Assembly: GCA_041946855.1 (NCBI GenBank)
Contig: JBHGBE010000005.1
Span: 11,108 to 75,107 of the forward strand
Source: Phycisphaerae bacterium
Lineage (GTDB): Bacteria; Planctomycetota; Phycisphaerae; SM23-33
Reading direction: 5' to 3'
DNA: 64,000 bases
The notes under the pieces are model-generated. The model was not told where the DNA came from. It made no database searches and worked only from the letters and a program-made list of their open reading frames with translations. This document shows, one piece after another, positions 11,623 to 60,750 of the stretch (position 1 is the first letter of the stretch; each line of letters starts with the position of its first letter). The translations under genes were made by a program, and so were the position numbers.

Positions 11623-11808
11623 GGACGCGCTCTGTCCTTCGCGCGTGTGAGGTTGAGAACAGGGCGCGTCCCTATCTCTATCCGCATTTGACGTTTGCCC
11701 AAGGCGCCGCAAATCCTTGAACCGTCGGCCGGCCATCGCCATACTGGATATTCCGGCGGCGCGGCCGTCGCCGGATGCGTTAGGCTGGTCCCATCCGTCA
11801 ACAGGAGC

Positions 11809-14800
11809 ATGAACATGCGGTTGGCAAGTCTGGGTGCGATGTCGAGCGTGGCGATGGTTCTCACGTGGGCGGTCCTGACGACGCCGGTTCTGGCCCAGGA
11901 CAGCAGGAACATCGTCGAGAACCCTTCCTTCGAGGACAACAACCCCGGCGGCAAGACGGTCTTCCCCGGCTGGTCGTTCACGGCGCACGAGGGCCAGTGC
12001 GACCTCCGCGCAAGCGCCATCGCCCGCACCGGCAAGGCGTCCGCCATGCTCTGCGGGGCCAACGCCCCCAAGATGCGCCTGATGCAGACGCATGACCTTG
12101 AGCCCGGCAGGTATCGCATCACGGCCTTCCTCCGTGGCCTGGACATCGGCAAGGGCACGTGGGGCTGGACCACCGAGTTCATGTTCGACGGCTCCGACAA
12201 GGGCGGCTACTTCCAGCTTGACAAGAACGGGACGTTCGGCTGGACCAAGCTGACCTTCGTCGGCGAGATCAAGGAAAAGCACAAGGCCCAGGGGCCCTCC
12301 TTCGGCCTCTGCGCGCCGGGCTGGCTGTGGGTGGACGACGTGACGATGGAGAAGGTCGGCGACGACGTGGCCCTGACGCCCAAGCCGGTGCTGGATAAGG
12401 AAGAGGCCCCCATCGCCCCGCCGGGCAAGATCGACTCCACGGCCGTGCGCTGCCCGGAGTGCTCATACCGCAACATGCCCGCGTGGAAGAACTGCTACGC
12501 CTGCGGCACGAGCCTGGAGGTGAAGAAGGCCGTCGTCACCGGTCCGCCGGTAAAGCTCATCACGTCCTTCGAGGAGGCCAAGTGCCCATTCGAGGTGGGC
12601 GATGAAAAGGCGCAGGCAACCGTCGTCGAGGAGCACGCCACCGACGGCAAGAAGGCCCTGAAGCTCTCCCGGAGCTACGCCTCGATGTCGGCAAAGCAGG
12701 ACTGGGCGGGCTACGACTACCTCAAGGCCGACATGTACACGGACGCCACCGACCCGATGGAGATCACCGTCGAGGTCCGCGATATCGGGACTACCGACTA
12801 CTACACGCGAGTCAACTACACCACCATCGTCCCGCCGGGGGCCAGCACGCTGATCATCCCGATCAAGCAACTTTACGTCGGCGAGAAGTCCCGGCCGGGG
12901 CGGATGCTCGACGCGGGCAACGTCACCCGTCTGGTCTACGCCATCTCCGACAAGCCCCAGGCGCCGCTTTTCATCGACAACATCCGCGTCGAACGGGACG
13001 AGGACGCCGCGAAGGTCTTCTTCGACGGCCTGCTCGCATACGACTTCCAGCCCAACAACACCTGCCCGCTGATGGAGGGCTTCACGCCGGTCGTGCCGTC
13101 CACCATTTACAGCGAGGGCAAGGGCTACGGCCTCAAGAACGCCGGCAACCCGGCCGGCCAGAACGCCCTCCAGCCCGACCCGCTCTACCAGGACTACATC
13201 AATATCACTCAGGGCGGCATGGCCGTCGATGTGCCCAACGGAAAGTACCACGTCTGGGTCAACGTCAACCGGCCCAACCTCTACTGGGGCGAGGTGCAGC
13301 AGTGGACCAAGCGGACGATCAAGGCCAACGGCAAGGTCGTCGTGGATGAGACGCGGACGGCGGATGACCTCAAGAAGCAGCACTTCCGCTTCTGGAACAC
13401 CGACGACCTGCCGACGGACAACACGTTCGACAAGTACCAGAAGGTCTATGACGAGAAGGCGTTCGACGTCGACGTGACGGATGGGCAGCTCTTCATCGAG
13501 TTCGGCGGCCAGGGCTACGAGCCGTGCGCGGTGTCGGCCCTCGTGATCTACCCAGCCTCCAAGGCGGCCGAGGGCGAGAAGTTCCTCAAGTACGTCGAAT
13601 CGCGCCGGCGGTTCCACTTCGACAACTACTTCAAGCGGACGTTGCACAAGGCAACGGGGGACGCCCTGGCGCCAAACGACAACGACAAGAAGCTCGGCCT
13701 GGTCATCTTTGCGCCGAACTTCATGAAAGACGTGTACTACAACGACACGCCGCTCAAGTCGGAACTGGGCCAACCGGCAAAGGCGGACGCCTTCGCGGGC
13801 GAGATGGCCCCGCTGACCGTGGCAGTCGTTCCGCTGATGGACCTTGGTAGGGTGACGGCAACCGTCAGCGATTTGAGCGGCGATGCCGGCACGATCCCCG
13901 CCTCGGCCATCGAAGTCGGCTACGTCTCCTATCGCATCAATCGCGTCACGATGGAGGGATCGGTCTACACCATCGGCCCGCGTTTCGTCATGCCGACAAG
14001 CGCCGTGGAGATGCCCAAGGACATCACGCGGCAGTTTGTGGCGACGGTGAAGGTGCCGGCCGACGCGAAACCCGGCCTCTACACTGGGAAGATCAGCTTC
14101 AAGACCGAAAAGGGCGGCGACCAGGGCGCTGCCGCGGTCAAGAACAGCATCCTGGTCGAGCTTCGCGTTCGTAGCGGCGCGCTCGACGATGTTGACATCC
14201 CCGCCGGACCGTGGGGCATCGAAGCGCCGTACATCGGCGACCTCGTCTGCATGAAGAAGCTCCGCGAGTACGGCTTCACCGACTTTTCGAGCGGGCCGAA
14301 AGTGCGCTACAGCGGATTCAAGGACGGCAAGCCGCAGCTCGACTTCACGGCCGCCGACAAGCTGATGGCCACCGCCAAGGAACTGGGCTTCAGGGGCGTG
14401 GTCTTCTATAGCACGCTGGTGTACGGCTACAACGCGTACTTCAAGGATGACGCGGCGATGAAGGCCGCGGGCTTCAAGGACTACGCCGAGTTCATCAAGG
14501 CCCTCTACACGCCCATTCAGAAGCACGCCGAGGAGGCCGGCTGGATTCCGTACTTCATCAACCTCGGCGACGAGCCGGCCGGCGACGACGTTAACCGCGC
14601 GGCCGACAACTGCGAGGCCTATCGCAAGGCGTTCCCCAAGGGGCCGCCGTGGTTCTCCTTCGCGACAAGCTACTCCGGCACCGACACCAAGAGCCCGCAC
14701 GCGCGGCTGTGCAAGGCCGTCGAGATTCCCAACCTCAACGGCCATGACGAGGCCGCGATCAAGATACTGCACGACGCCGGCTGCCAGTGGGCCTTCTACA

Positions 14801-15222
14801 ACGGCGGCAGCCGCTGGACGTTCGGCGACTACATGTACAAGGCGGCGAAGCAGTTCGACATGAAGTTCCGCATCGCCTGGCACTGGAACTGCACGGCCGG
14901 CGATCCGTTCTACGCCCTGGACTGCCGCGAGGACGACTACGCCTGGGCGCAGTCGACGCCCGATGGCAAGCTGATGACCTGCCTTGACCTGTTCGAGCGG
15001 AAGCGCGAGGGCCTGGGCGATTACCGGCGACTGCTGACGCTGGCGCGATTGGCCAAGGAAAAAGCCGGCACGCCCGCGGCCGTCGCCGGCGAGAAGCTCA
15101 TCGACGCCCGCATGGCCAGCTTCAAGCTCGGCCAGCGCGACCACGACGCGCTCTTCGGCCTGGCCGACTGGGACGCCTTCCGCGCCAAGGTCAACGACGC
15201 CATCGAGGCGCTGAGGAAGTAA
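11809..15222 (+). CDS. Large secreted carbohydrate-active protein, putative glycoside hydrolase with an N-terminal CBM-like domain and a Zn-ribbon
   Basis: Signal peptide (MNMRLASLGAMSSVAMVLTWAVLTTPVLAQ) preceded by an AGGAG ribosome-binding site. CPECSYRNMPAWKNCYACG zinc ribbon. A TIM-barrel-like C-terminal region. The specific family is not recognised. Confidence 0.55.
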   Translation: MNMRLASLGAMSSVAMVLTWAVLTTPVLAQDSRNIVENPSFEDNNPGGKTVFPGWSFTAHEGQCDLRASAIARTGKASAMLCGANAPKMRLMQTHDLEPGRYRITAFLRGLDIGKGTWGWTTEFMFDGSDKGGYFQLDKNGTFGWTKLTFVGEIKEKHKAQGPSFGLCAPGWLWVDDVTMEKVGDDVALTPKPVLDKEEAPIAPPGKIDSTAVRCPECSYRNMPAWKNCYACGTSLEVKKAVVTGPPVKLITSFEEAKCPFEVGDEKAQATVVEEHATDGKKALKLSRSYASMSAKQDWAGYDYLKADMYTDATDPMEITVEVRDIGTTDYYTRVNYTTIVPPGASTLIIPIKQLYVGEKSRPGRMLDAGNVTRLVYAISDKPQAPLFIDNIRVERDEDAAKVFFDGLLAYDFQPNNTCPLMEGFTPVVPSTIYSEGKGYGLKNAGNPAGQNALQPDPLYQDYINITQGGMAVDVPNGKYHVWVNVNRPNLYWGEVQQWTKRTIKANGKVVVDETRTADDLKKQHFRFWNTDDLPTDNTFDKYQKVYDEKAFDVDVTDGQLFIEFGGQGYEPCAVSALVIYPASKAAEGEKFLKYVESRRRFHFDNYFKRTLHKATGDALAPNDNDKKLGLVIFAPNFMKDVYYNDTPLKSELGQPAKADAFAGEMAPLTVAVVPLMDLGRVTATVSDLSGDAGTIPASAIEVGYVSYRINRVTMEGSVYTIGPRFVMPTSAVEMPKDITRQFVATVKVPADAKPGLYTGKISFKTEKGGDQGAAAVKNSILVELRVRSGALDDVDIPAGPWGIEAPYIGDLVCMKKLREYGFTDFSSGPKVRYSGFKDGKPQLDFTAADKLMATAKELGFRGVVFYSTLVYGYNAYFKDDAAMKAAGFKDYAEFIKALYTPIQKHAEEAGWIPYFINLGDEPAGDDVNRAADNCEAYRKAFPKGPPWFSFATSYSGTDTKSPHARLCKAVEIPNLNGHDEAAIKILHDAGCQWAFYNGGSRWTFGDYMYKAAKQFDMKFRIAWHWNCTAGDPFYALDCREDDYAWAQSTPDGKLMTCLDLFERKREGLGDYRRLLTLARLAKEKAGTPAAVAGEKLIDARMASFKLGQRDHDALFGLADWDAFRAKVNDAIEALRK

Positions 15223-15260
15223 GCGGCAATCAGTGAGCAGTAATCGGTAAGCAGTCCTAT

Positions 15261-15374
15261 GGAGTGCGGCGGCAAAGTCCCGTAGGGACGCGACGCCGCT
15301 TTGGATGTCGTGCCAATCACCGACGGCGAGCCAAAGCGGCGTCGCATCGCTTCGCGATATTGCCGCCGCACTCC
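15261..15374. repeat. Nested about-115-nt palindrome between convergent genes (multi-branched hairpin; bidirectional terminator or structured RNA)
   Basis: Outer arms GGAGTGCGGCGGCAA / TTGCCGCCGCACTCC. Inner arms GCGACGCCGCTTTGG / CCAAAGCGGCGTCGC. Small hairpins GTCCCgtagGGGAC and ATCGCttcGCGAT. Confidence 0.6.
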
Positions 15375-15402
15375 ACAAGGTCGCCCTTAGTTCGGAATTC
15401 TC

Positions 15403-19248: not shown

Positions 19249-20355
19249 ATGCCTGCGAGCAATGACACACTGACGGCCAAGCTCGACGAACTGCACCGGC
19301 GCTACGCGCAGATCACGGAGCAGATGAACGACCCGGCCGTCGCGTCGGATGCGACGAAGATCGTCGCTCTGGCCAAGGAGCGGTCCAGGCTGGCCCGCAT
19401 AGTCGAGCCGTACATCAAGTACAAGGCCGTCGCCGCCCATCGTGACGAGGCGCAGGCAATACTCGACGATCCAGCCGGCGACGCGGACCTCAAGGCTATC
19501 GCGCGGGGCGAGGTCGATGACCTGAAGCACAAGGCCGAGGCGGCGCTGGACGAAATCAAGGGCCTCCTGGTCATGGTGGACGACGAGCAGATCGACTCGG
19601 TCGTGCTGGAGATCCGCGCGGGCACGGGCGGCGAGGAGGCGGCGCTATTCGCCGCGGACCTGGCCGGCATGTACAGGCGATACGCCGAGGGACACCGATG
19701 GAGCTTCGAGATACTCTCGGCCAGCCCGACGGACATGGGCGGCTTCCGCGAGCTCATCGCCAACATCAAAGGCCCCGGCGTATGGACCCACTTCGGTTAC
19801 GAGGGCGGCGGCCATCGCGTCCAGCGCGTGCCCAAGACCGAGGCTCAGGGGCGGATACACACTTCCGCCGCGACGGTGGCCGTCCTGCCCGAGCCGGAGG
19901 ACGTCGAGGTCAACATCAACTGGGAGAAGGACGTCGAGGAGTACACCAGCCGCGCCGGCGGCCCCGGCGGCCAGAACGTCAACAAGGTCGAGTCGGCCAT
20001 CCGCCTGGAGCACAAGCCCACCGGCATTACCGTGTCGATGCGCGATGAGAAGAGCCAGCACAAGAACCGCGCCAAGGCCAGGCGAATCCTGGCGGCCCGC
20101 GTGTACGAGCACATCCGCGGCCAGCAGTTGGCGGCCGAGGCCGCGGCCCGCAAGGCGATGATCGGCTCGGGCGACCGCTCGGAGCGCATCCGCACGTACA
20201 ACTTCCCGCAGAACCGCTGCACCGACCACCGGCTCAAGAGCGCCGGCTCCGAGGGCGCCAACTACAACCTCCAGCAGATAATGGCCGGCGACATGGACGA
20301 GCTGATCAACGCGCTGATCGCGCACGACAAGGCGCAGAGGCTGGCCAATCTCTGA
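19249..20355 (+). CDS. prfA: Peptide chain release factor 1
   Basis: GGQ motif ([24 protein letters not shown]). RF-1 PxT-type region. Start placed at the inner Met [11 protein letters not shown]. Confidence 0.9.
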
Positions 20356-20433
20356 TTGCAGATTGCGGATTGAACGCGCGCGAGCGGGTTGTGTCCTCCA
20401 ATCTGCAATCTACAATCTGCAATCTGCAATAGG
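20354..20433. repeat. Heptamer-arm inverted repeat element A (GATTGCAGATTGCGGATTG ... CAATCTGCAATCTACAATCTGCAATCTGCAAT)
   Basis: Starts on the prfA stop codon and ends 10 nt before the mazG-like start. Arms are tandem 7-mers. About 21-nt GC-rich loop. Confidence 0.7.
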
Positions 20434-20442
20434 ACCAATGCC

Positions 20443-20706
20443 ATGACCATCCGGGAGTTTCAGGACTTCATCTACAAACAGTACTACCCCACGGACTCCA
20501 ATCGCGGCACGCCCGCGACATTCCTGTGGTTCATGGAGGAGGTGGGCGAGCTGGCCTCAGCCCTGGCCGGCGACGATGAGCACAACAAGGAGGAAGAGTT
20601 CGCGGACGTCTTCGCGTGGCTTTGCACACTGGCCAACATCAACGGCGTGGACCTGGCCAAGGCCATCGAGAAATACACGGTGCGGGGGGTAGAAGGACAC
20701 AAGTGA
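20443..20706 (+). CDS. MazG-like nucleotide pyrophosphohydrolase (small MazG family)
   Basis: MTIREFQDFIYKQYY...FLWFMEEVGELASAL...EEEFADVFAWLCTLANINGVDL shows the EExxE/D MazG motifs. The ORF-track N-terminal extension (MCPPICNLQSAICN) is translated repeat DNA, so the inner Met is used. Confidence 0.75.
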   Translation: MTIREFQDFIYKQYYPTDSNRGTPATFLWFMEEVGELASALAGDDEHNKEEEFADVFAWLCTLANINGVDLAKAIEKYTVRGVEGHK

Positions 20707-20836
20707 TTTTCGATTGACGATTTCGATTGGCGATTGCTCAAAAAGAGAACCCGGCCCGTCTCTGGTTCACAAGACCAAAGACGGGCCGCGTCCTTGTAGT
20801 TCAATCGTCAATCGCCAATCGGCAATCGACAATCAG
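20705..20836. repeat. Heptamer-arm inverted repeat element B between convergent genes, with a nested GC hairpin
   Basis: Left arm gattttcgattgacgatttcgattggcgattgc. Right arm tcaatcgtcaatcgccaatcggcaatcgacaatcag. Centre contains CGGCCCGTCT...AGACGGGCCG. The arms overlap both stop codons. Confidence 0.7.
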
Positions 20837-24330: not shown

Positions 24331-24376
24331 TCAATTTACAATCTGCAATCTGCAATCTACAATCGCCGAATCAATG
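24331..24376. repeat. Heptamer repeat half-element C (caatttacaatctgcaatctgcaatctacaatcgccgaatcaatgg)
   Basis: Same CAATCTG/CAATCTA units as element A. Sits in the divergent ferredoxin/thiF-like promoter region and contains the thiF-like ATG. A weak partner (acgattttccgg) lies about 50 nt upstream. Confidence 0.6.
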
Positions 24377-31193: not shown

Positions 31194-31314
31194 CGATGAA
31201 GAACCAGGAAATGAAGAATGCAGAATGATGAATGCAGAATGTAGAAGTCAGACGGGTACGTAATGGCTGTCACTTCATCATTTTACTTTGAACATTTTGC
31301 ATTCTGCATTTCCA
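31194..31314. repeat. Heptamer-arm inverted repeat element D (GAATGCA type)
   Basis: Left arm gatgaagaaccaggaaatgaagaatgcagaatgatgaatgcagaatgtagaag directly after the DUF192 stop. Right arm ttcatcattttactttgaacattttgcattctgcatttcc. Confidence 0.7.
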
Positions 31315-31345: not shown

Positions 31346-32596
31346 GTGCAGGAGCCTTGTCCCCTGGAGATCGACTTGCCGTCCAAGCGAAAGCTCCTGT
31401 GGATATCCGACGCCTCCGTGCCGCCCAACCTGCGCAAGGCGCTGGGCGACGAGTGGGAGCTCGCGCCCTGCGCGTTCGGCCAGACGCTTGAGGCCCAGCT
31501 TGCCGAGGCGGGCCTGGCGGTCATCTACCCCAACGGCCGGCGCGACGATCCACTGCACCTGGGCATGATCCTCGGCGCACTGGAGCGGACGCCGGCCGTC
31601 GCGCTGCTCATGCTCGACGGGCCGCGGCGCACGCGCGGCAGCGGCGCCTCACACGGCGCGCGCCCGGCCGTCGCGGGAAGGTCCGGCCAGTTCCTCTGCG
31701 CCGCCGCCGACAGCACGCCGCGCGAGCTTGCCGCCAAGCTCACGGCCGCCGCCGCCCTCCAGCCGGCCATCCGCGAACTCCACGCGGAGCTCGCCTCCGC
31801 GCGCAAGCTCGCCGCCACGGCCGGCGCGATGGAGGAACTCGACGAGGAGCTGCGCCTGGCCGCGCGGCTCCAGCGCGACTTCCTGCCGCGGCGGATGCCC
31901 GAGGTCGGCCCGGTGCGCTTCGGCGTGCTCTACCGCCCGGCGAGCTGGCTGTCGGGCGACATCTACGACGTGACGCGCCTCGACGAACGGCACGTGGGCT
32001 TCTACGTCGCCGACGCCGTCGGCCACGGCATGCCCGCGGCGCTGCTGACCATGTTCATCAAGCACGCCCTCCAGACCAAGCGGATCGTCGGCAGCACATA
32101 CCAGATCGTCCCGCCGGAGGTCTCGCTGGCCGAACTGAACGCCGACATCTGCCGGCAGAACCTGACGAGCTGCCAGTTCTGCACGGCCGTCTACGCGGTG
32201 CTCGACACCGAAACGCTCACGCTCACCTACTGCCGCGCCGGCCACCCGCCGCCGATCATATTCCGCAATCCGAATTCGACAATCGGCAATCTCCAATCTA
32301 CAATCCTCGACGCTCCCGGCAGCCTGCTGGGCGTCTTCCCGGAGGAGACCTACCAGTCGCGCACGGCCGTGCTCGCTCCCGGCGACCGCCTGGTTCTCTA
32401 CACCGACGGGGCGGAAGAGGCGCTTCGCCGCGCCGACGGCAAGGGCGGCCTGGAAAAGCTGCTCGCGCCCCTGGCGGCCGCGCCGCGGGATGAGATGCTC
32501 CTGCGCCTGGCCGCGATGCTCGACGACGCCGCCGGCAACCCCAACAGCCGGGATGACATCACCGTCATGGTTGTGGATGTCCAGCGCGAATCATAG
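31346..32596 (+). CDS. PP2C-family (SpoIIE/RsbU-like) serine phosphatase with an N-terminal regulatory domain
   Basis: VADAVGHGMPAALLT...YCRAGHPPP...LYTDG...D motifs. The exact start is uncertain. Confidence 0.8.
   Translation: MQEPCPLEIDLPSKRKLLWISDASVPPNLRKALGDEWELAPCAFGQTLEAQLAEAGLAVIYPNGRRDDPLHLGMILGALERTPAVALLMLDGPRRTRGSGASHGARPAVAGRSGQFLCAAADSTPRELAAKLTAAAALQPAIRELHAELASARKLAATAGAMEELDEELRLAARLQRDFLPRRMPEVGPVRFGVLYRPASWLSGDIYDVTRLDERHVGFYVADAVGHGMPAALLTMFIKHALQTKRIVGSTYQIVPPEVSLAELNADICRQNLTSCQFCTAVYAVLDTETLTLTYCRAGHPPPIIFRNPNSTIGNLQSTILDAPGSLLGVFPEETYQSRTAVLAPGDRLVLYTDGAEEALRRADGKGGLEKLLAPLAAAPRDEMLLRLAAMLDDAAGNPNSRDDITVMVVDVQRES
32262..32310 (+). repeat. Heptamer repeat block E (6-7 x CAATCNN) lying in frame inside the PP2C phosphatase CDS
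   Basis: ccgcaatccgaattcgacaatcggcaatctccaatctacaatcctcgac encodes RNPNSTIGNLQSTIL. It shares caatctacaatc with elements A and C. Confidence 0.65.
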
Positions 32597-34025: not shown

Positions 34026-34476
34026 GGCGGCGGCGGGCGGCAGGGCTTGCGCGGCGCAGCAGAGCAGCCACGTATCGTTCGTGTTGAAGGGCGGCGGGCA
34101 GAGCGCGGCGGGCGACGAGAATTTTTTTTCGCCTTTGGCCGGTGACAGTGGACTTGGGGCCGAAGCGGACCGTAATATGGAAGGCTGAAGACCGAGCGTG
34201 CAACGGCGCCTGTTGCGCGTCGGTCCCAAGGGTGCGGCAGTACAGTGCTGTCGTAGGTGTTCGGGCAGGTCGGGCCGCCTCCCGGAGAATGGACTGCGGA
34301 GAGCGGCATGGACAAGCTCGAGCGCACGGCCATTTCCACCAATCAGGCCAGCGGCGCCGGCTGTGTTTTGCGCCTTGGCCGCACGCTGTTCCGCGGCGCG
34401 ACGCCGCCGGCGGCCCGCCCGGCCGCGCGGGGCGCGGCGCGCGCCGTGGCCTGGGCCGCGGGGTAGGAGGTGGTCC

Positions 34477-36084
34477 GTGAAGATCACCAACATCCTGACC
34501 CCGGAGACTGTCATCACGGGCCTATCGGCGGCCAGCCGGGATGAGGCAATCCGCGCGCTGATAGACCTCCTGGGCAAGTCCAGGTGCGTTGACGGCGAGA
34601 GGGCCGGGCTGGACGTCGCGGCCAGGGACCGAAGCGGCCTGACCCTCATGTCCATGCGGGGGCCGGTCGTGGCGGTTCCCCACGCCCGCACCAGCGCGTG
34701 CAACCAGTTGGTCATGGCGCTGGGAACATCGCCCGAGGGCGTGCCGTGGGACGGCCCCACCCGCGCGAACCTGGCCGTGCTCATCCTTTGCCCGCCCCAG
34801 GCGCACGCGCTGTACCTGCGGGTCCTGGGCCGCATCGCCCGGATGTTCGAGGCCAGGGACCTGCTCGAATCGATGCTTCGCGCCTCCACCGGCAGGGAGG
34901 TCATGGCCCTGCTGGCGGCGGCCGAGGAGCCGCTGGGCGAGATGGTCGCCGGCGACGGGCTCCCGACCTTCTGCGTCCTGGGCGCGGGCCATGGGGGCCT
35001 GGCGATGGCCGCCCATCTTGCCCTGAACGGGTGCAAGGTGAACGTCTTCAACAGGACCGACGCGCACATAGAACTGGTCCGCACAAGGGGCGGCATTGAC
35101 GCCGAGGGAGAGGTGAACGGATTCGCGACCCTCAATGTCGTCAGTTCCAACCCGGCGGAGGCAATAAATGATTGCGACGTGCTGATGGCGGTCGTGCCGG
35201 CGACCGCGCATCGCGACATCGCCAGGATCATCGCCCCGCACATCAAGGACGGGCAGACCCTCGTTCTGAACCCGGGGCGGACCGGCGGGGCCCTGGAGGT
35301 CGCCAGGATCATACGCCAGGGCAATCCCAACGTCCGGCCGTATATAGCCGAGGCGCAGACGCTGCTCTACGCCGCCCGCGCGACGAACCCCGGCCAGGTG
35401 CGGGTGTTCGGGGTCAAGAACTCCGTGCCGCTGGCGACGCTGCCGGCGTACAGCGTCACCGACGTGCTGCCCGTCATTCGCAAGGCCCTGCCGCAGTTCG
35501 TCCCCGGCGACAACGTGCTGAAGACCAGCCTGGACAATATCGGCGCGGTCTTCCATCCCGCCATCACCATCCTCAACGCCGCCCGCATAGAGGACACGCA
35601 CGGCGACTTCGAGTACTACGTGGAGGGGGTCACGCCCGCGGTGGCGAGGGTCCTGGAGGAGATCGACAAGGAGCGGGTGGCCGTGGCCGCCGCGCTGGGC
35701 ATCCGCGCCAACACGGCCCGCGAATGGCTGTACCTCGCGTACGACGCGCCCGGCAAGACGCTCCTCGACGCCATGAGGGCCAACGCCGGGTACGCGGGCA
35801 TCAAGGCCCCCGGCACCATGGAGCACAGGTACATCTCGGAGGATGTGCCCTGTAGCCTCGTGCCCATAGCGTCCATAGGCGAGATGCTTGGCGTCCGCAC
35901 GCCGACTATCCGCTCGATCATCCGCCTTGCCTCCGCGATGCACGGCGTGGACTACTGGGCCGAGGGCAGGACGGTGGAGCGGCTGGGGATCAACGGGATG
36001 TCCGTAAAGGAGATTCGTTTCCTGGTGGTGGGGGCTGAAGGGGCCGCCGAGCCGCCGGCGCCGGCGCCTCCCGCGGAAGAATGA
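34477..36084 (+). CDS. PTS EIIA(Ntr)-type domain fused to an NAD(P)-binding opine-dehydrogenase-like domain
   Basis: GTG start with an AGGAGG ribosome-binding site. ITNILTPETVITGL...VVAVPHARTS (EIIA-2 with phosphorylatable His). FCVLGAGHGGLAMAAHLALNGCKV Rossmann fold. Octopine/nopaline-dehydrogenase-like C-terminal helical domain. Confidence 0.65.
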   Translation: MKITNILTPETVITGLSAASRDEAIRALIDLLGKSRCVDGERAGLDVAARDRSGLTLMSMRGPVVAVPHARTSACNQLVMALGTSPEGVPWDGPTRANLAVLILCPPQAHALYLRVLGRIARMFEARDLLESMLRASTGREVMALLAAAEEPLGEMVAGDGLPTFCVLGAGHGGLAMAAHLALNGCKVNVFNRTDAHIELVRTRGGIDAEGEVNGFATLNVVSSNPAEAINDCDVLMAVVPATAHRDIARIIAPHIKDGQTLVLNPGRTGGALEVARIIRQGNPNVRPYIAEAQTLLYAARATNPGQVRVFGVKNSVPLATLPAYSVTDVLPVIRKALPQFVPGDNVLKTSLDNIGAVFHPAITILNAARIEDTHGDFEYYVEGVTPAVARVLEEIDKERVAVAAALGIRANTAREWLYLAYDAPGKTLLDAMRANAGYAGIKAPGTMEHRYISEDVPCSLVPIASIGEMLGVRTPTIRSIIRLASAMHGVDYWAEGRTVERLGINGMSVKEIRFLVVGAEGAAEPPAPAPPAEE

Positions 36085-39761: not shown

Positions 39762-41236
39762 CGTGTCGCGGCTGCGGAGATCGGATCTGACGCCGGCTGG
39801 CTGGCGGGCCTGCTCGCGGGCAGCTTGCCTTGGGCGACCTCGTCCAGCCACTTTTCCAGGACGGCAAGGTTGGCCTTGTCCGACGGCCGTAGGAGCCAGC
39901 CGTGGCCCGCGCCCTGGACGTACTCAATGGTCAGCGGCACGCCCGCGTCGGTCCAGGGCTTCTCGACCTTGCGCCACATCTCGCAGAGCGGCTTGATGCC
40001 CCGCGCCTTGGCGGCGGCCGCGTTGCCGCCCGCGCCGAAGTCCTCCGTGCCGACGACCACGAGGATGGGCGTCTTCCTGACATCCTTGCCCTTGGGGGGC
40101 TCAAGCGGCTTGGCGACGAGGCGGCCGCCCTCGACGGTCTGGCTGACCGGGTATGCGGCGTCGATGATGAGCCCGCCGAACTTGTCGGCGTTGTCGGCCC
40201 AGAGCGACAGGGCCATCTGCCCGCCGGCCGAGAAGCCCATCAGGATCGGCCGCCGAACGTCGATGCCTTCGATCTTCCCAACCTCAGGCAATGTCTTGTT
40301 GAGCAGCTTGACGGCGTCCTCGCCGCTCCAGCCCATCCAGTTCTTGCGCGTCAGCACGAGCAGCGCGAAGCCTTTCTTGACCATCATGGGCGAGAGGGCC
40401 TCGGCGAAGATGTTGGCCGAGCCGCCGGATGGGTGCATCCAGATGATGAGCCTGTCGGGCTTGTCCCTGGCGGCGTCGGGGCCCATCCGCAGGCGGTATC
40501 GCAGGCCGCCGGTGGGGAAACCCTCGACCGTCTTGACGCCCTCGATGTCCTTGCCCTTCTCATAAGGGGCCTTCTTCTCGTTCTCATCCGCCTTGGCGGC
40601 AAGCTCGTCGAACTGCTTGTCCTTGCGAAGCTCGGCCAGGTCGGGATCGCTGCGCATGTGCTCGGGATTGTCCCAGCCGAGATCGACCGCCTTGGCCAGG
40701 GCGGCCATCGCCTCATCCTTCCTGCCCAGGAGCGCCAGTGCGCACGCCAGGTTGTAGCGGGAATTGGCGTTATTGGGATTGTTTTTCACATCCGCGGACC
40801 ACTTGTCGAGTTCCTTTGTGGCGATGGCGGAGATCAGGTCCTTGAAGGCCTGCCTGTCGCGAAGGGCGGCCAGGTCGTCGTCGGCCCTGATATGGGAGAT
40901 GTCGGTGTAGCCAAGCTCGACTGACTTGGTGAGACTGGCCATGGCCTCCTCGTTCTTGCCTAGGCGGGCCTGGGCGCAGGCGAGGTTGTAATAGCCCATC
41001 GGGTCCTTGGGCGTCAGGTCGATCACCTGCCGGCATAGGGCGGCCGCCTTTTCGTAATCCTTGCTGGCGAATAGTCTTATAAGGTCCTGCTGGAGGGCCG
41101 CGGCCTTGGCGGTGCGCTGTTGAGGCGACATGGCCGGCCCGGTGGCCGGCTCGGAGGCGGGGTCTTCCGCGAGCGACAGGCCGTGACCCGCGGCCAGTGT
41201 CAGGATTGCACAGGCGATCAGTCGAGTGATACGCAT
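39758..41236 (-). CDS. Secreted TPR-repeat protein fused to an alpha/beta-hydrolase (esterase/dienelactone-hydrolase-like) domain
   Basis: Signal peptide MRITRLIACAILTLAAG. TPR units. GFSAGG nucleophile elbow. Downstream Asp/His. Confidence 0.7.
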   Translation of the reverse strand: MRITRLIACAILTLAAGHGLSLAEDPASEPATGPAMSPQQRTAKAAALQQDLIRLFASKDYEKAAALCRQVIDLTPKDPMGYYNLACAQARLGKNEEAMASLTKSVELGYTDISHIRADDDLAALRDRQAFKDLISAIATKELDKWSADVKNNPNNANSRYNLACALALLGRKDEAMAALAKAVDLGWDNPEHMRSDPDLAELRKDKQFDELAAKADENEKKAPYEKGKDIEGVKTVEGFPTGGLRYRLRMGPDAARDKPDRLIIWMHPSGGSANIFAEALSPMMVKKGFALLVLTRKNWMGWSGEDAVKLLNKTLPEVGKIEGIDVRRPILMGFSAGGQMALSLWADNADKFGGLIIDAAYPVSQTVEGGRLVAKPLEPPKGKDVRKTPILVVVGTEDFGAGGNAAAAKARGIKPLCEMWRKVEKPWTDAGVPLTIEYVQGAGHGWLLRPSDKANLAVLEKWLDEVAQGKLPASRPASQPASDPISAAATR

Positions 41237-52700: not shown

Positions 52701-53523
52701 GCTGGCGCTGGTCGATGGATGGTTGGCAAAGGTCCCCGCCAGCGCGCCGGCCACCGCCCCCGCGACAAAGCCCGCGCCCACGCCGACTCCCCGGCCGCCC
52801 ATCAGGCCATTCCCGGGCCCGGGTCCCGGTCCCGGCCCAGGTCCGGCGACAGCCCCGGCGAAGGTCGTCATCGAGCTTGGTCCCTGGCTGCGCCAGACGA
52901 AGGTCTGGGTACTCCTCAAGGCGGGCAAGTTCGGCGACGCCCTGGTGACGGCCGACAAGTACCTCAAGGATGATCCCAAGGACGTCCGCCTGCTCAACCT
53001 CAAGAGCTCCTGCCTGTCGGAACTGAAGCGGCCGAAGGAGTCGATGGCCGTCCTGGAGGAAGTGTACAAGCTCAACCCCAACGACAGCATGGCCAACAAC
53101 AACCTCGGCTACGTCTATGCCGAGCAGGGCGTGAATCTCGACAAGGCCCACGAGATGCTCCGCAGGGCCCTGGGTGAGAAGCCCTCCGACCCGTCGTTCC
53201 TGGACTCGCTGGGCTGGATCCTCTACCGGCAGGGCCGGTTCAACGAGGCCGGCAGCGTCTTCCGCGAGCTGCTGACGCTGCTGGAGGGCCGCGAGGCGGA
53301 TGAGGGCCGCGCGGTCATCTACGACCACGCGGGCGACGCGTACTGGCGGCTGGGCTGGGCCCAGAAGGCCGTGGAGCTTTGGAACAAGGCCGTCGAGCTG
53401 GCCGGCAAGGACAAGTCGCCGACCCCGGAGGACAAGCAGGTGCAGTCCTCGGCGCAGGCGAAGGTCAAGGCCGCCCAGTCGGGCAAGGCCCCGGCCGTGA
53501 TGCTGACGGCCGAAGGAAAGTAG
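49786..53523 (+). CDS. Very large TPR-repeat lipoprotein with PGPGPGPGPGP linker
   Basis: Putative GTG start overlapping the hisG stop. N-terminal LVAAVVLCAACGCS lipoprotein-type signal. TPR units throughout. Confidence 0.65.
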   Translation: MTTRHSPWIGLVAAVVLCAACGCSAQGQGQTAQAGPGTSAQPTPAPLPAKALLKLDELKPPLATRPTATSAPTTRPLSPQAAAALAEAEKCLAAKPTPDTMEAIRYLERAISFDPDSVKIRRTLGLAYASIQDYGKAVNHLRYAVKAAPDDLESHLLLANVLMFQKANEDAIAAFRTALACSDARPENPLTAEALLHLGELLQKEGYYTAALECFTRLEGMIEKYGSAYTSRAALKELVLRPERLQTVRGQLLTDLRRPSEAIDPLQKAYDSNHTDLTAARLLLEALIAVKQYDRAEKLLVELAGEGSQGPQLSMLAQSLCRAAGDPAMPNRIWEAFRKKNAVNAPLAVALAAISERLGRDDQARAILQAVAEQMPGNMSVASALAGLLARQGKPEAALDVLVKAVAASPRNVTGVGEGVRQVLAASLTDAKEKEFIDSARASAGADKYAMLYVAGMIAQARGQYDQAVDLFGQTIDARRDFLPAYEGIVDVDLAQDLYDKAANAVAGLPRQDYFASYLLGKIKLARGQTAAAIKDLEACRKADEKFVPACLALAEAYVRERRGDTAASVLKSVLNTEDPRVYRLLFQTYLAGRQYRDAQAVIGMSIERSPQSLQGLIMLAELNMAIGQHLAARSIVAQLLEQAPDSVDVNLLAAREEVAAAGGLVSKPQYDVAMKRLDAVLRLDPRNIDAQRFKAQLAGQPGLFAQAAETWKNLRQQYPAETEFGVNYAMALMLARKYDLAAQTAEELLAGMTTDTPDRQALRTTFIELQLKLKNYAKAEELVQKWINEENAKADNAKDLARIRGYQGLLLTIYEAAKDPASCEKAVKAIDEWLPKADARAKARLYQQKVQFLCLAKQYDKAVEYVNGLIKQKVKPETDIPRGALIVELREAKQFDKAQAALDEWIKAGGSADLLESYRVLKIELYGQAGKLDEAQKVADACIAQAPTAVAPRQALIDVLADPAHKKYDQALALVDGWLAKVPASAPATAPATKPAPTPTPRPPIRPFPGPGPGPGPGPATAPAKVVIELGPWLRQTKVWVLLKAGKFGDALVTADKYLKDDPKDVRLLNLKSSCLSELKRPKESMAVLEEVYKLNPNDSMANNNLGYVYAEQGVNLDKAHEMLRRALGEKPSDPSFLDSLGWILYRQGRFNEAGSVFRELLTLLEGREADEGRAVIYDHAGDAYWRLGWAQKAVELWNKAVELAGKDKSPTPEDKQVQSSAQAKVKAAQSGKAPAVMLTAEGK

Positions 53524-53708
53524 CGGAAAGAAAAAACTTGCAGGGATGCAAGGGATACAAAGGATGATGAAGTTGAAGAGACAGGCAGTGCAATGCGGCC
53601 CGGCGGCCGAATCGCGACACCGGGCGCCTGTGGGGCGCTGCCGCGGCTTGCTTGCTTTCAATTGTCTGAATCCCCTGCATCCCCTTTATCCCTGCTGAGT
53701 TTCTGTTG
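53524..53708. repeat. Heptamer-arm inverted repeat element G (GCAGGGA/TGCAAGG type)
   Basis: Left arm cttgcagggatgcaagggatacaaaggatgatgaag immediately after the TPR-lipoprotein stop. Right arm aatcccctgcatcccctttatccctgc. GC-rich centre with its own hairpin. Confidence 0.7.
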
Positions 53709-53719
53709 GAGAAGGAAGC

Positions 53720-54472
53720 ATGTCAGGCCATTCTCACTGGGCTAAGATCAAGCGTTACAAGTCGGCCACGGACGCCAAGCGCGGCCGCGCGTGGAGCAAG
53801 CTCGCGCGCCGCATCATCGTGGCCGCCAAGCACGGCGGCGGCAACCCCGACGACAACCTTTCCCTGCGCTATGCCATCGACGACGCCCGCGCGGAGAACA
53901 TGCCCAACGACACGATCAAGAACGCCATCAAGAAGGGCACGGGCGAGCTCGGGGCGGTCAACTACGAGAACATCACCTACGAGGGCTACGGCCCCGGCGG
54001 CGTGGCGTACCTGGTCGAGTGCCTCACCGACAACCGCAGCCGGACCGCGCCGGAGATGCGCAAGATATTCGAGCGGGCCGGCGGCCAGATGGGCCCGGTC
54101 AACTGCGTGGCCTGGATGTTCGACAAGAAGGGCGTCTTCGCCATCACCTCCGACAAGGCCGACGAGGACACGCTGATGGAGATCGCGCTTGAAGCCGGGG
54201 CCGACGACGTGACGCGCGATGGCGACCTCTTCGAGATCACCTGCTCGCCGGCCGCGTTCAACAAGGTCAAGGAGGCGCTGGCCGCCCGCAAGATCGAGAC
54301 CGTCTCCGCGCAGATCGCCATGCAGCCCAGGAACACGGTCCCCGTCGGCCCCGACAAGGCCGCTCAGGTCCTGGGCCTGGTCGAGGCGCTGGAAGAGCAC
54401 GAGGACGTGCAGAACGTCTACGCCAACTTCGACATACCCGAGGAGGTGCTGGCGAAGGTGGGAGAGAAGTAG
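53720..54472 (+). CDS. yebC: YebC/PmpR-family transcriptional regulator
   Basis: MSGHSHWAKIKRYKSATDAKRG...KHGGGNPDDNLSLRYAIDDARAENMPNDTI. Confidence 0.9.
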   Translation: MSGHSHWAKIKRYKSATDAKRGRAWSKLARRIIVAAKHGGGNPDDNLSLRYAIDDARAENMPNDTIKNAIKKGTGELGAVNYENITYEGYGPGGVAYLVECLTDNRSRTAPEMRKIFERAGGQMGPVNCVAWMFDKKGVFAITSDKADEDTLMEIALEAGADDVTRDGDLFEITCSPAAFNKVKEALAARKIETVSAQIAMQPRNTVPVGPDKAAQVLGLVEALEEHEDVQNVYANFDIPEEVLAKVGEK

Positions 54473-60610: not shown

Positions 60611-60750
60611 GCGTTGCTTCGTTACTTCGTTAACTCGTTACTTCGTACATGTGTGGCCCCAGGAGTAACCGTGCGGGCCGAACAGAGCCGGGCGAGCCAC
60701 GAATCAGCCAAGTAACGAAGCTACGAAGCAACGAGGCAACGAGTCAACGC
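60611..60750. repeat. Heptamer-arm inverted repeat element H (CGTTACTT type)
   Basis: Left arm gcgttgcttcgttacttcgttaactcgttacttcgtac. Right arm caagtaacgaagctacgaagcaacgaggcaacgagtcaacgc, ending 1 nt before the stop of the 60752..63442 gene. Confidence 0.7.

Follow-up and report, generated by a model that had tools for sequence, protein, structure and literature searches.

An in-frame CAATCNN heptamer array in a PP2C phosphatase gene of a Phycisphaerae bacterium

Heptanucleotide simple-sequence repeats lie mostly between genes, with some copies in open reading frames (ORFs) (PMC4679880, PMC4692102, PMC2700814), and in many bacteria no other class of long simple-sequence repeats is as abundant, according to the summary of Mrazek 2007 given in PMC4679880. 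How does such a repeat come to lie in the middle of a catalytic domain, and does it matter to the protein? The question is raised by a 64,000-nucleotide (nt) stretch of Phycisphaerae DNA (contig JBHGBE010000005.1, positions 11,108 to 75,107; hereafter the window), in which an array of CAATCNN units lies within the coding sequence (CDS) of a PP2C phosphatase of the SpoIIE family. We put at roughly three in four the probability that this array is a lineage-specific, probably recent in-frame insertion or expansion of heptamers in a permissive hairpin, giving a slightly longer polar loop that would be functionally neutral.

A heptamer array within the PP2C coding sequence

The first-pass annotation of the window had pointed to a tandem CAATCNN block in this gene, and the block is indeed there: positions 32262-32310 (ccgCAATCcgAATTCgaCAATCggCAATCtcCAATCtaCAATCctcgac) hold six 7-nt units of the NNCAATC type (Table 1). 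The CAATC core is exact in five of the six units, the other (AATTC) being degenerate with three of its five bases in agreement, and Tandem Repeats Finder calls a period of 7 at 32279-32305. Neighbouring units agree at only 5-6 of 7 bases, and at most four units are contiguous. The array is single-armed, not palindromic and predicted to be unpaired as RNA, and no GATTG array that could serve as its inverted partner was found within the PP2C gene or its flanks.

The array belongs to a family that is otherwise intergenic in the window. The motif CAATCNNCAATC matches 16 times in the 64 kb, whereas dinucleotide-preserving shuffles give an expectation of 0.07 and never more than 1, and the 16 matches are confined to four places (20354-20430, 20725-20834, 24339-24364 and 32280-32305). 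Three overlapping matches make up the last of these, within the PP2C CDS; the others lie at 20354-20372 (-), 20399-20424 (+), 20725-20736 (-), 20802-20834 (+) and 24339-24364 (+). The PP2C array also has the 12-mer CAATCTACAATC in common with two intergenic arrays, elements A and C (at 20406-20417 and 24353-24364), a sharing that had likewise been noticed in the first pass. A lag-7 scan of the whole 64 kb, unbiased as to motif (cut-off, at least 17 of 21 matches), returned exactly four strong arrays, all of the CAATC type, namely three intergenic arrays and the PP2C block; block shuffles returned 0. The PP2C array thus consists of tandem 7-nt units, exceeds chance and belongs to a multicopy, mainly intergenic family, which are the marks of a heptanucleotide simple-sequence repeat. 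The class is known, and the PP2C array is an ordinary example of it.

In composition the array is foreign to its surroundings. It is the 14-codon stretch of the gene with the lowest GC content at third codon positions (GC3) and overall (0.50 and 0.43; the gene averages 0.91 and 0.71), and its GC content is the third lowest among the 17,245 14-codon stretches of the 41 CDSs of the window. No Rfam family was found on any of the arrays at the gathering threshold, and a literature search for the encoded heptapeptide (NPQSAIR, NLQSAIC and similar) returned nothing relevant. A low-GC stretch at 40751-40792 (-; NNPNNANSRYN, with CAATCC...CAATAA...CCAATTC) was considered as a second in-CDS array and rejected, because its motifs are off the 7-nt register; it falls in a TPR-like NLACAL motif.

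Table 1 Coordinates of the arrays and of the host gene (positions in the window unless a locus is named).
Feature	Position	Strand	Remarks
Host gene, RssB-like PP2C (SpoIIE family) phosphatase	31346..32596	+	416 residues; Pfam SpoIIE PF07228, E=3.8e-41
In-CDS heptamer array	32266..32305	+	CAATC cg AATTC ga CAATC gg CAATC tc CAATC ta CAATC; CAATC on sense strand
Array-encoded codons R307-L321 (RNPNSTIGNLQSTIL)	32264..32308	+	Tip of beta-hairpin in modelled PP2C domain; codon table, GC3 minimum
Element A left arm, (GATTGNN)3 on + strand	20354..20372	-	Begins at TGA stop of release-factor gene
Element A right arm, (CAATCTR)4.6	20399..20430	+	Ends 12 nt before MazG ATG at 20443; pairs with left arm
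Element B left arm, (CGATTGN)4	20708..20736	-	Directly after MazG stop
Element B right arm, (CAATCGN)5	20801..20834	+	Overlaps TGA stop of minus-strand, convergent TPR gene
Element C, single-armed (CAATCTR)5	24331..24364	+	Ends 9 nt before ThiF ATG at 24374
In-CDS arrays elsewhere, some inverted pairs	L042 6846-6946; L030 1154-1215; L024, L035, L040, L017, L022, L041, L104, L065		Encode Q-S-x-I-x-N-x peptides
Arrays in related contigs	L001 368-401, 482-521, 1047-1063, 2359-2382, 3059-3085; L003 2968-3274

The encoded loop sequence is absent from other orthologues

The PP2C product is 100% identical to an annotated protein of a Phycisphaerae metagenome-assembled genome, and its next relative in the protein database stands at 68% identity. 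An AlphaFold (AF2) model built from 38 orthologues (mean predicted local distance difference test score, pLDDT, 87.8) has a receiver-like N-terminal domain, a long helix and a PP2C domain, with Pseudomonas aeruginosa RssB, Rv1364c, SiaA and SpoIIE as the closest solved structures. The array is read as R307-NPNSTIGNLQSTIL-321 and lies, as first described, between the conserved motifs RAGHPPP and GSLLGV, where strands 304-307 and 317-320 of the model form a hairpin around the array residues (pLDDT 83-92). All invariant positions are kept, including the metal-binding residues D205, D208, D223, D354, D403 and D404.

We compared the loop between the two motifs (AGHP to GxLLG) across the 114 orthologues in which both could be parsed. 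It measures 17 residues in 103 of them, 16 in one, 18 in one and 23 in the window protein, in keeping with the earlier remark that the motifs stand several residues farther apart than usual. The Maf-DUF192-PP2C gene order is conserved between the window and the contigs of four orthologues, and we therefore regard the compared proteins as true orthologues. An alignment of this kind had been proposed beforehand as the check on an insertion, and it supports one: no sequence of the QSxIxNx type (NSTIGNLQSTI) occurs in any other orthologue of the 114-member comparison, nor do orthologues carry the same segment in non-repetitive codons, as an ancestral loop would have it. The nearest orthologue (68% identity) has GC-rich, non-repetitive loop codons (cgc gcg ggc ggc tcc atc gag tcg ctg aac gcg).

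The size of the change is smaller than had been supposed. The first-pass annotation proposed an in-frame insertion of about 14 residues (42 nt); the 42 nt are repeat-like and in frame, and they encode about 14-15 residues, yet the net gain is 6 residues (18 nt) relative to the orthologues and 7 relative to RssB. A HMMER comparison with the PP2C domain of P. aeruginosa RssB (PDB 3es2, 3eq2) places a 7-residue gap exactly at NSTIGNL, which corresponds to 21 nt or three units. Judged from these alignments, either about eight ancestral codons would have been overwritten, or three units would have been added beside sequence that was already repeat-like.

Other lineages have lengthened the same loop. 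It is longer by 33 residues, Ala-rich, in one orthologue (P0003), by 39 in another (P0092) and by 7 in each of three more (P0075, P0081 and P0093). In the clade of P0105, P0115 and P0083 it has gained 12 to 65 residues, with about one, three and five copies, respectively, of the 10-residue unit GEPRTEVSGL, which in P0083 is encoded by a 30-nt tandem repeat of five copies that are 98% identical (L002 10838-10986). These insertions are independent of, and unrelated to, that in the window protein, and the tip of the AGHP-GxLLG hairpin is, on this comparative evidence, a permissive site. We also asked whether the P0083 repeat belongs to a family of intergenic 30-nt repeats in a related contig (L003), and dropped the idea: the alignment score of 14 is within the range of shuffles (mean 12.4, 95th percentile 16).

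These comparisons bear on two explanations that would do away with an insertion altogether. One holds that the loop is ancestral or arose by chance, shaped by selection on the protein and only coincidentally like the intergenic repeat. Loop length does vary in the PP2C family, but the orthologue alignment effectively refutes this account, for the sequence is missing from all other orthologues, its GC3 is atypical of the gene, its 12-mer is identical in two intergenic arrays, and three overlapping CAATCNNCAATC matches fall here when 0.07 are expected in the entire window. The other is that repeat sequence was wrongly joined into the contig at this point. The contig comes from a metagenome-assembled genome, and assemblers can be misled by repeats; however, an array of only 40 nt is below read length, both flanks continue one conserved domain without a change of frame, and a frame kept by chance would be improbable, all of which make an artefact highly improbable.

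A repeat that is open in every sense frame

The sequence of the repeat itself bears on how it can be tolerated. None of the 16 CAATCNN variants contains a stop in any sense frame, whereas only 8 of the 16 are stop-free in antisense. Because 7 and 3 are coprime, three consecutive units are read once in each frame, and the array is therefore always translated as the same cyclic polar heptapeptide, Q-S-x-I-x-N-x, whatever the frame. The open sense frames account both for the tolerance of the repeat in coding sequence and for ORF callers reading through it.

We propose that a copy of the genome's own CAATCNN repeat arose or landed in the PP2C coding sequence in this lineage. Slippage, template switching or recombination from another array could each have generated it, with no need for a transposase, terminal inverted repeats or a target-site duplication; neither terminal inverted repeats nor a target-site duplication is present at the array flanks (...atcatattccg before the array, ctcgacgct... 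after it). An origin from a miniature inverted-repeat transposable element or other transposon was rejected on the same grounds, here as well as for two in-CDS arrays of other genomes described below (L042 and L030). Its survival would rest on three things: the hairpin tip tolerates extra sequence, the gain in length is divisible by three (+18 nt relative to the orthologues, or 21 nt and three units relative to RssB), and the repeat is stop-free in every sense frame. With every catalytic residue kept, the repeat most likely does no more than lengthen a surface loop, as a neutral or nearly neutral passenger.

Two observations weigh against so simple a history. The net change of 18 nt relative to the orthologues is no whole number of 7-nt units, and a plain insertion of three or six units needs an accompanying loss of 3 or 24 nt, which cannot be reconstructed at 68% identity. 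In addition, the CAATC core is intact in five of six units across all three codon phases, with the variation mostly in NN, as expected either of a very recent event or of selection acting on the DNA or RNA motif itself, which would speak against strict neutrality.

The latter would make the array an embedded cis-element, kept because a factor or structure that uses the intergenic arrays also acts on the PP2C mRNA or DNA, for example a protein that recognises CAAUC repeats at 7-nt spacing in single-stranded RNA or DNA. The core is conserved and NN variable in both CDS and intergenic copies (the right arm of element B has CAATCG followed by T, C, G and A), the composition of the array has not drifted to the GC3 of the genome, and CAATC-orientation arrays lie directly upstream of starts across genomes, which suggests an RNA-level role for intergenic copies. 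The CDS copy, however, has no start codon or gene boundary after it, is single-armed and unstructured, and is absent from all 113 other orthologues, so that it is not needed for PP2C regulation in general; moreover, heptamer arrays are about equally frequent for control cores that match CAATC in composition (CTAAC, ACATC), so that CAATC does not stand out as a specially recognised motif. We consider a regulatory role of the CDS copy unlikely.

Phase variation is a further possibility to be weighed against a neutral insertion, and a very unlikely one. Under it the array would be a contingency locus, in which slipped-strand gain or loss of a unit toggles the phosphatase. The 7-nt unit is not a multiple of 3, so that a change by one unit is a frameshift, and copy-number variation is known for heptamer simple-sequence repeats (PMC4692102). 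Against this, the units are imperfect, with a contiguous run of no more than four, the array occupies codons 307-321 of 416, far from the 5' end, and the host gene encodes a cytoplasmic signalling phosphatase and no surface structure. When metagenomes were scanned with exact anchors from the two flanks and a gap of variable length, no strain or relative variant of the array was found.

Intergenic arrays abut stops and starts

The five intergenic arrays of the window lie at 20.3-24.4 kb, each abutting a stop or a start, and form elements A, B and C (Table 1). GATTG is on the sense strand in copies that follow stops, and CAATC in copies that precede starts. The inverted pair of element A folds into a long hairpin (-43.4 kcal/mol, z=-4.2), and the arms of element B enclose a GC-rich hairpin (-68.4 kcal/mol, z=-9.5 for the fold); element C is unstructured (z=0.16). 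At two genes the stop itself is part of a repeat unit: the TGA codons of the release-factor gene (20353-20355) and of the minus-strand TPR gene (20833-20835) form part of a GATTG unit (TGATTG). The TGA of MazG (20704-20706) precedes the first GATTG unit by 5 nt, and the arrays thus begin at or near stops.

Read-through of these arrays is visible in the gene models. The first-pass annotation regarded ICNLQSAICN and ICNLQSTIAE as spurious N-terminal extensions of the MazG-like and ThiF-like proteins, and both peptides are in-frame readings of the arrays upstream of the MazG start (20443) and the ThiF start (24374). From the ATG at 24374, ThiF has 262 residues, equal to its length in an orthologous contig.

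In-frame arrays recur in other genomes

To place the PP2C array in context, we scanned for four tandem CAATCNN units in one genome per species and obtained at least 120 loci. The matches listed span Acidobacteriota, Planctomycetota (including another member of the Phycisphaerae), Chloroflexota, Cyanobacteria, Verrucomicrobiota, Bacteroidota, Desulfobacterota, Xanthomonadales and others; the counts in the rest of this section, where they concern arrays, pairs or their orientation, likewise refer to the matches listed. An ORF that reaches at least 150 nt beyond each side spans 62 of 134 arrays. We checked ten candidates from among those with the longest flanks against Pfam, and all ten proved to be real genes with the array inside, encoding a Ser/Thr kinase, the penicillin-binding protein PBP1A, a Nuo/Mrp antiporter subunit, an FtsX permease, a helicase, UvrA, DnaE, a molybdenum hydroxylase, a DUF7948 protein and a DUF4175 protein. 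In the Phycisphaerae kinase (L042), the insertion is an inverted pair of five GATTG units, a 29-nt spacer and five CAATC units, and it adds 28 residues (84 nt, 12 units) between the catalytic loop and the DFG motif relative to PknB. In the Anaerolineae PBP1A (L030), a palindrome without a spacer follows the SxxK motif. An in-frame heptamer array in a conserved protein is thus a recurring event, of which the PP2C gene of the window gives only one instance.

Where two arms of opposite orientation lie within 200 nt, their order is strict. In genomes (L004-L123) the order 5'-(GATTGNN)n...(NNCAATC)n-3' prevails by 35 to 0, and in viral contigs (L124-L243) the GATTG arm comes first by 19 to 1. The control cores CTAAC and ACATC also tend to have the G/T-rich arm first (6 to 1 and 6 to 2). 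The orientation of arrays relative to genes is skewed as well: a long-ORF start follows 58 of 119 arrays in the CAATC orientation, as against 21 of 119 in the opposite one, and a long-ORF stop precedes 28 of 119 arrays in the GATTG orientation, as against 10 of 119. The placement of CAATC before starts and GATTG after stops is one consequence of the strict arm order. We also considered a machinery specific to CAATC and rejected it, because four-unit heptamer arrays with control cores are about as frequent in viral contigs (at least 120 for CTAAC and 116 for ACATC, compared with at least 120 for CAATC).

The arm order could reflect selection for G-poor leaders upstream of starts, or a generating mechanism that is itself polar. 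Taken further, the second idea would have the arrays made by an active polar process that seeds, across many phyla, both hairpin-forming inverted arrays between genes and coding loops in multiples of three units; a DNA break whose two 3' ends both receive templated G/T-rich units, or fold-back copying, would be examples of such a process. The strict arm order, the pairs of the same polarity in the kinase core and the penicillin-binding protein, and the conserved core with variable NN may all be compatible with it. We regard this proposal as speculative and rather doubtful, but if true it would amount to a general generator of loop insertions in proteins.

Relation to known repeat families

Rickettsia palindromic elements, to which the PP2C array was likened in the first pass, are reportedly 100-150 bp long and palindromic, have a family consensus and are found only in Rickettsia. 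The likeness holds as an analogy: in both cases genome-specific repeat DNA lies in frame in a conserved gene, at a tolerant surface position, with function apparently retained. It goes no further, and membership was rejected on size and shape, as the PP2C array is a 40-nt, single-armed run of tandem heptamers with no palindrome. The STRR heptamers of cyanobacteria are said to be tandem heptanucleotide families spread across intergenic DNA and to have served as markers for genomic fingerprinting. They resemble the window arrays in kind, and cyanobacterial genomes are among the CAATCNN matches listed; they differ in belonging to another phylum and in being described as intergenic, not as in-frame coding insertions.

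The closest parallel is with the GGGNATC and GGGGAYT arrays of Xanthomonas and Nostoc (Rehm et al. 2015, PMC4692102), which prefer four units, are in excess between genes and form tandemly inverted pairs. Like the arrays of the window, they consist of about 4-5 units of 7 nt in many copies, mostly intergenic with a coding minority, and they follow the same orientation rule, with the G-rich strand being sense after stops and antisense before starts (PMC4692102). The Nostoc unit GGGGATT is even a CAATCCC variant of CAATCNN. The window arrays differ in their host, a member of the Phycisphaerae (Planctomycetota), and in their units (CAATCTG, CAATCGN and so on), which have no G-tracts and cannot form the G-quadruplexes proposed for Xanthomonas and Nostoc; a G-quadruplex repeat was rejected for the PP2C array, whose complement (…GATTGTAGATTGGAGATTGCCGATTG…) contains no GGG run. 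Coding copies were set aside in the earlier papers and not treated as protein insertions (Rehm et al. 2015, PMC4692102; Mrazek et al. 2007, as cited in PMC4679880).

Two further families bear comparison. The TAACTGA direct repeats of marine Beggiatoaceae, cyanobacteria and Bacteroidetes (MacGregor 2015, PMC4679880) form arrays of 2-6 heptamers a few nt upstream of starts or overlapping the stop of the upstream gene, and they are sometimes read within ORFs as the heptapeptide LSVISYQ, mostly at protein ends (PMC4679880). TAACTGA, however, puts a stop into every forward frame, whereas CAATCNN leaves all sense frames open and can therefore sit in the middle of a catalytic domain. In Geobacter metallireducens, multicopy elements of four heptanucleotides occur in 49 copies between and within genes (Aklujkar et al. 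2009, PMC2700814); unlike CAATCNN, their GGGACCG unit is rich in GC, and the paper, which does not analyse protein loops, interprets them as a regulatory RNA element (PMC2700814).

Other repeats in the window and in related contigs

Several other short tandem arrays lie in the window. The 152-nt spacer between DUF192 and PP2C carries a different heptamer family as an inverted pair (31207-31313), with (GAATGNA)5 at 31210-31246 and (TNCATTC)n at about 31273-31312, which folds into a long hairpin upstream of the PP2C gene (-52.8 kcal/mol, z=-5.1). Between a stop at 53523 and an ATG at 53720 there is an inverted pair of tandem units of about 9 nt, the G-rich arm first (53541-53575, GGGATGCAA-like, and 53659-53695, ATCCCCTGC-like). 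Inverted arrays of 8-nt units, (CGTTACTT)4 and (AAGYAACG)5-6, lie between two minus-strand genes (60612-60646 and 60695-60749). Directly after the stop of the gene at 11695-15222 comes a 7/14-nt array at 15218-15255 (AGTAAGC or AGTAATC units and one GGCAATC), and a long GC-rich inverted repeat comes after it at about 15265-15375.

Related Phycisphaerae contigs have their own, different short tandem arrays (7-, 21- and 30-nt units) around the same genes (Table 1). Some of these were called as genes or as N-terminal extensions, such as the 'gene' at 3093-3377 of L003, which is a six-copy 30-nt repeat. A separate case of a misplaced start in the window is the ORF called at 34198-36084: an Rfam match to the nhaA-I riboswitch (34230-34283, +; 47 bits against a gathering score of 37) lies inside it, and the real start must therefore be further downstream.

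Implications

For annotation, the arrays are a source of error, because gene callers read through CAATCNN and produce spurious N-terminal extensions, as with MazG and ThiF, or report odd low-complexity loops in proteins that are real. For studies of protein evolution, the PP2C gene offers a clean example of non-coding repeat DNA turned coding in the middle of a catalytic domain. The single copy in this protein is most likely of no functional consequence. The recurrence of such arrays across phyla, together with their strict arm polarity, suggests that the origin of bacterial heptamer repeats merits a proper census. Within the family, the AGHP-GxLLG hairpin of RsbU/RssB-type PP2C phosphatases emerges as an insertion-tolerant site, which may serve for tagging or engineering.

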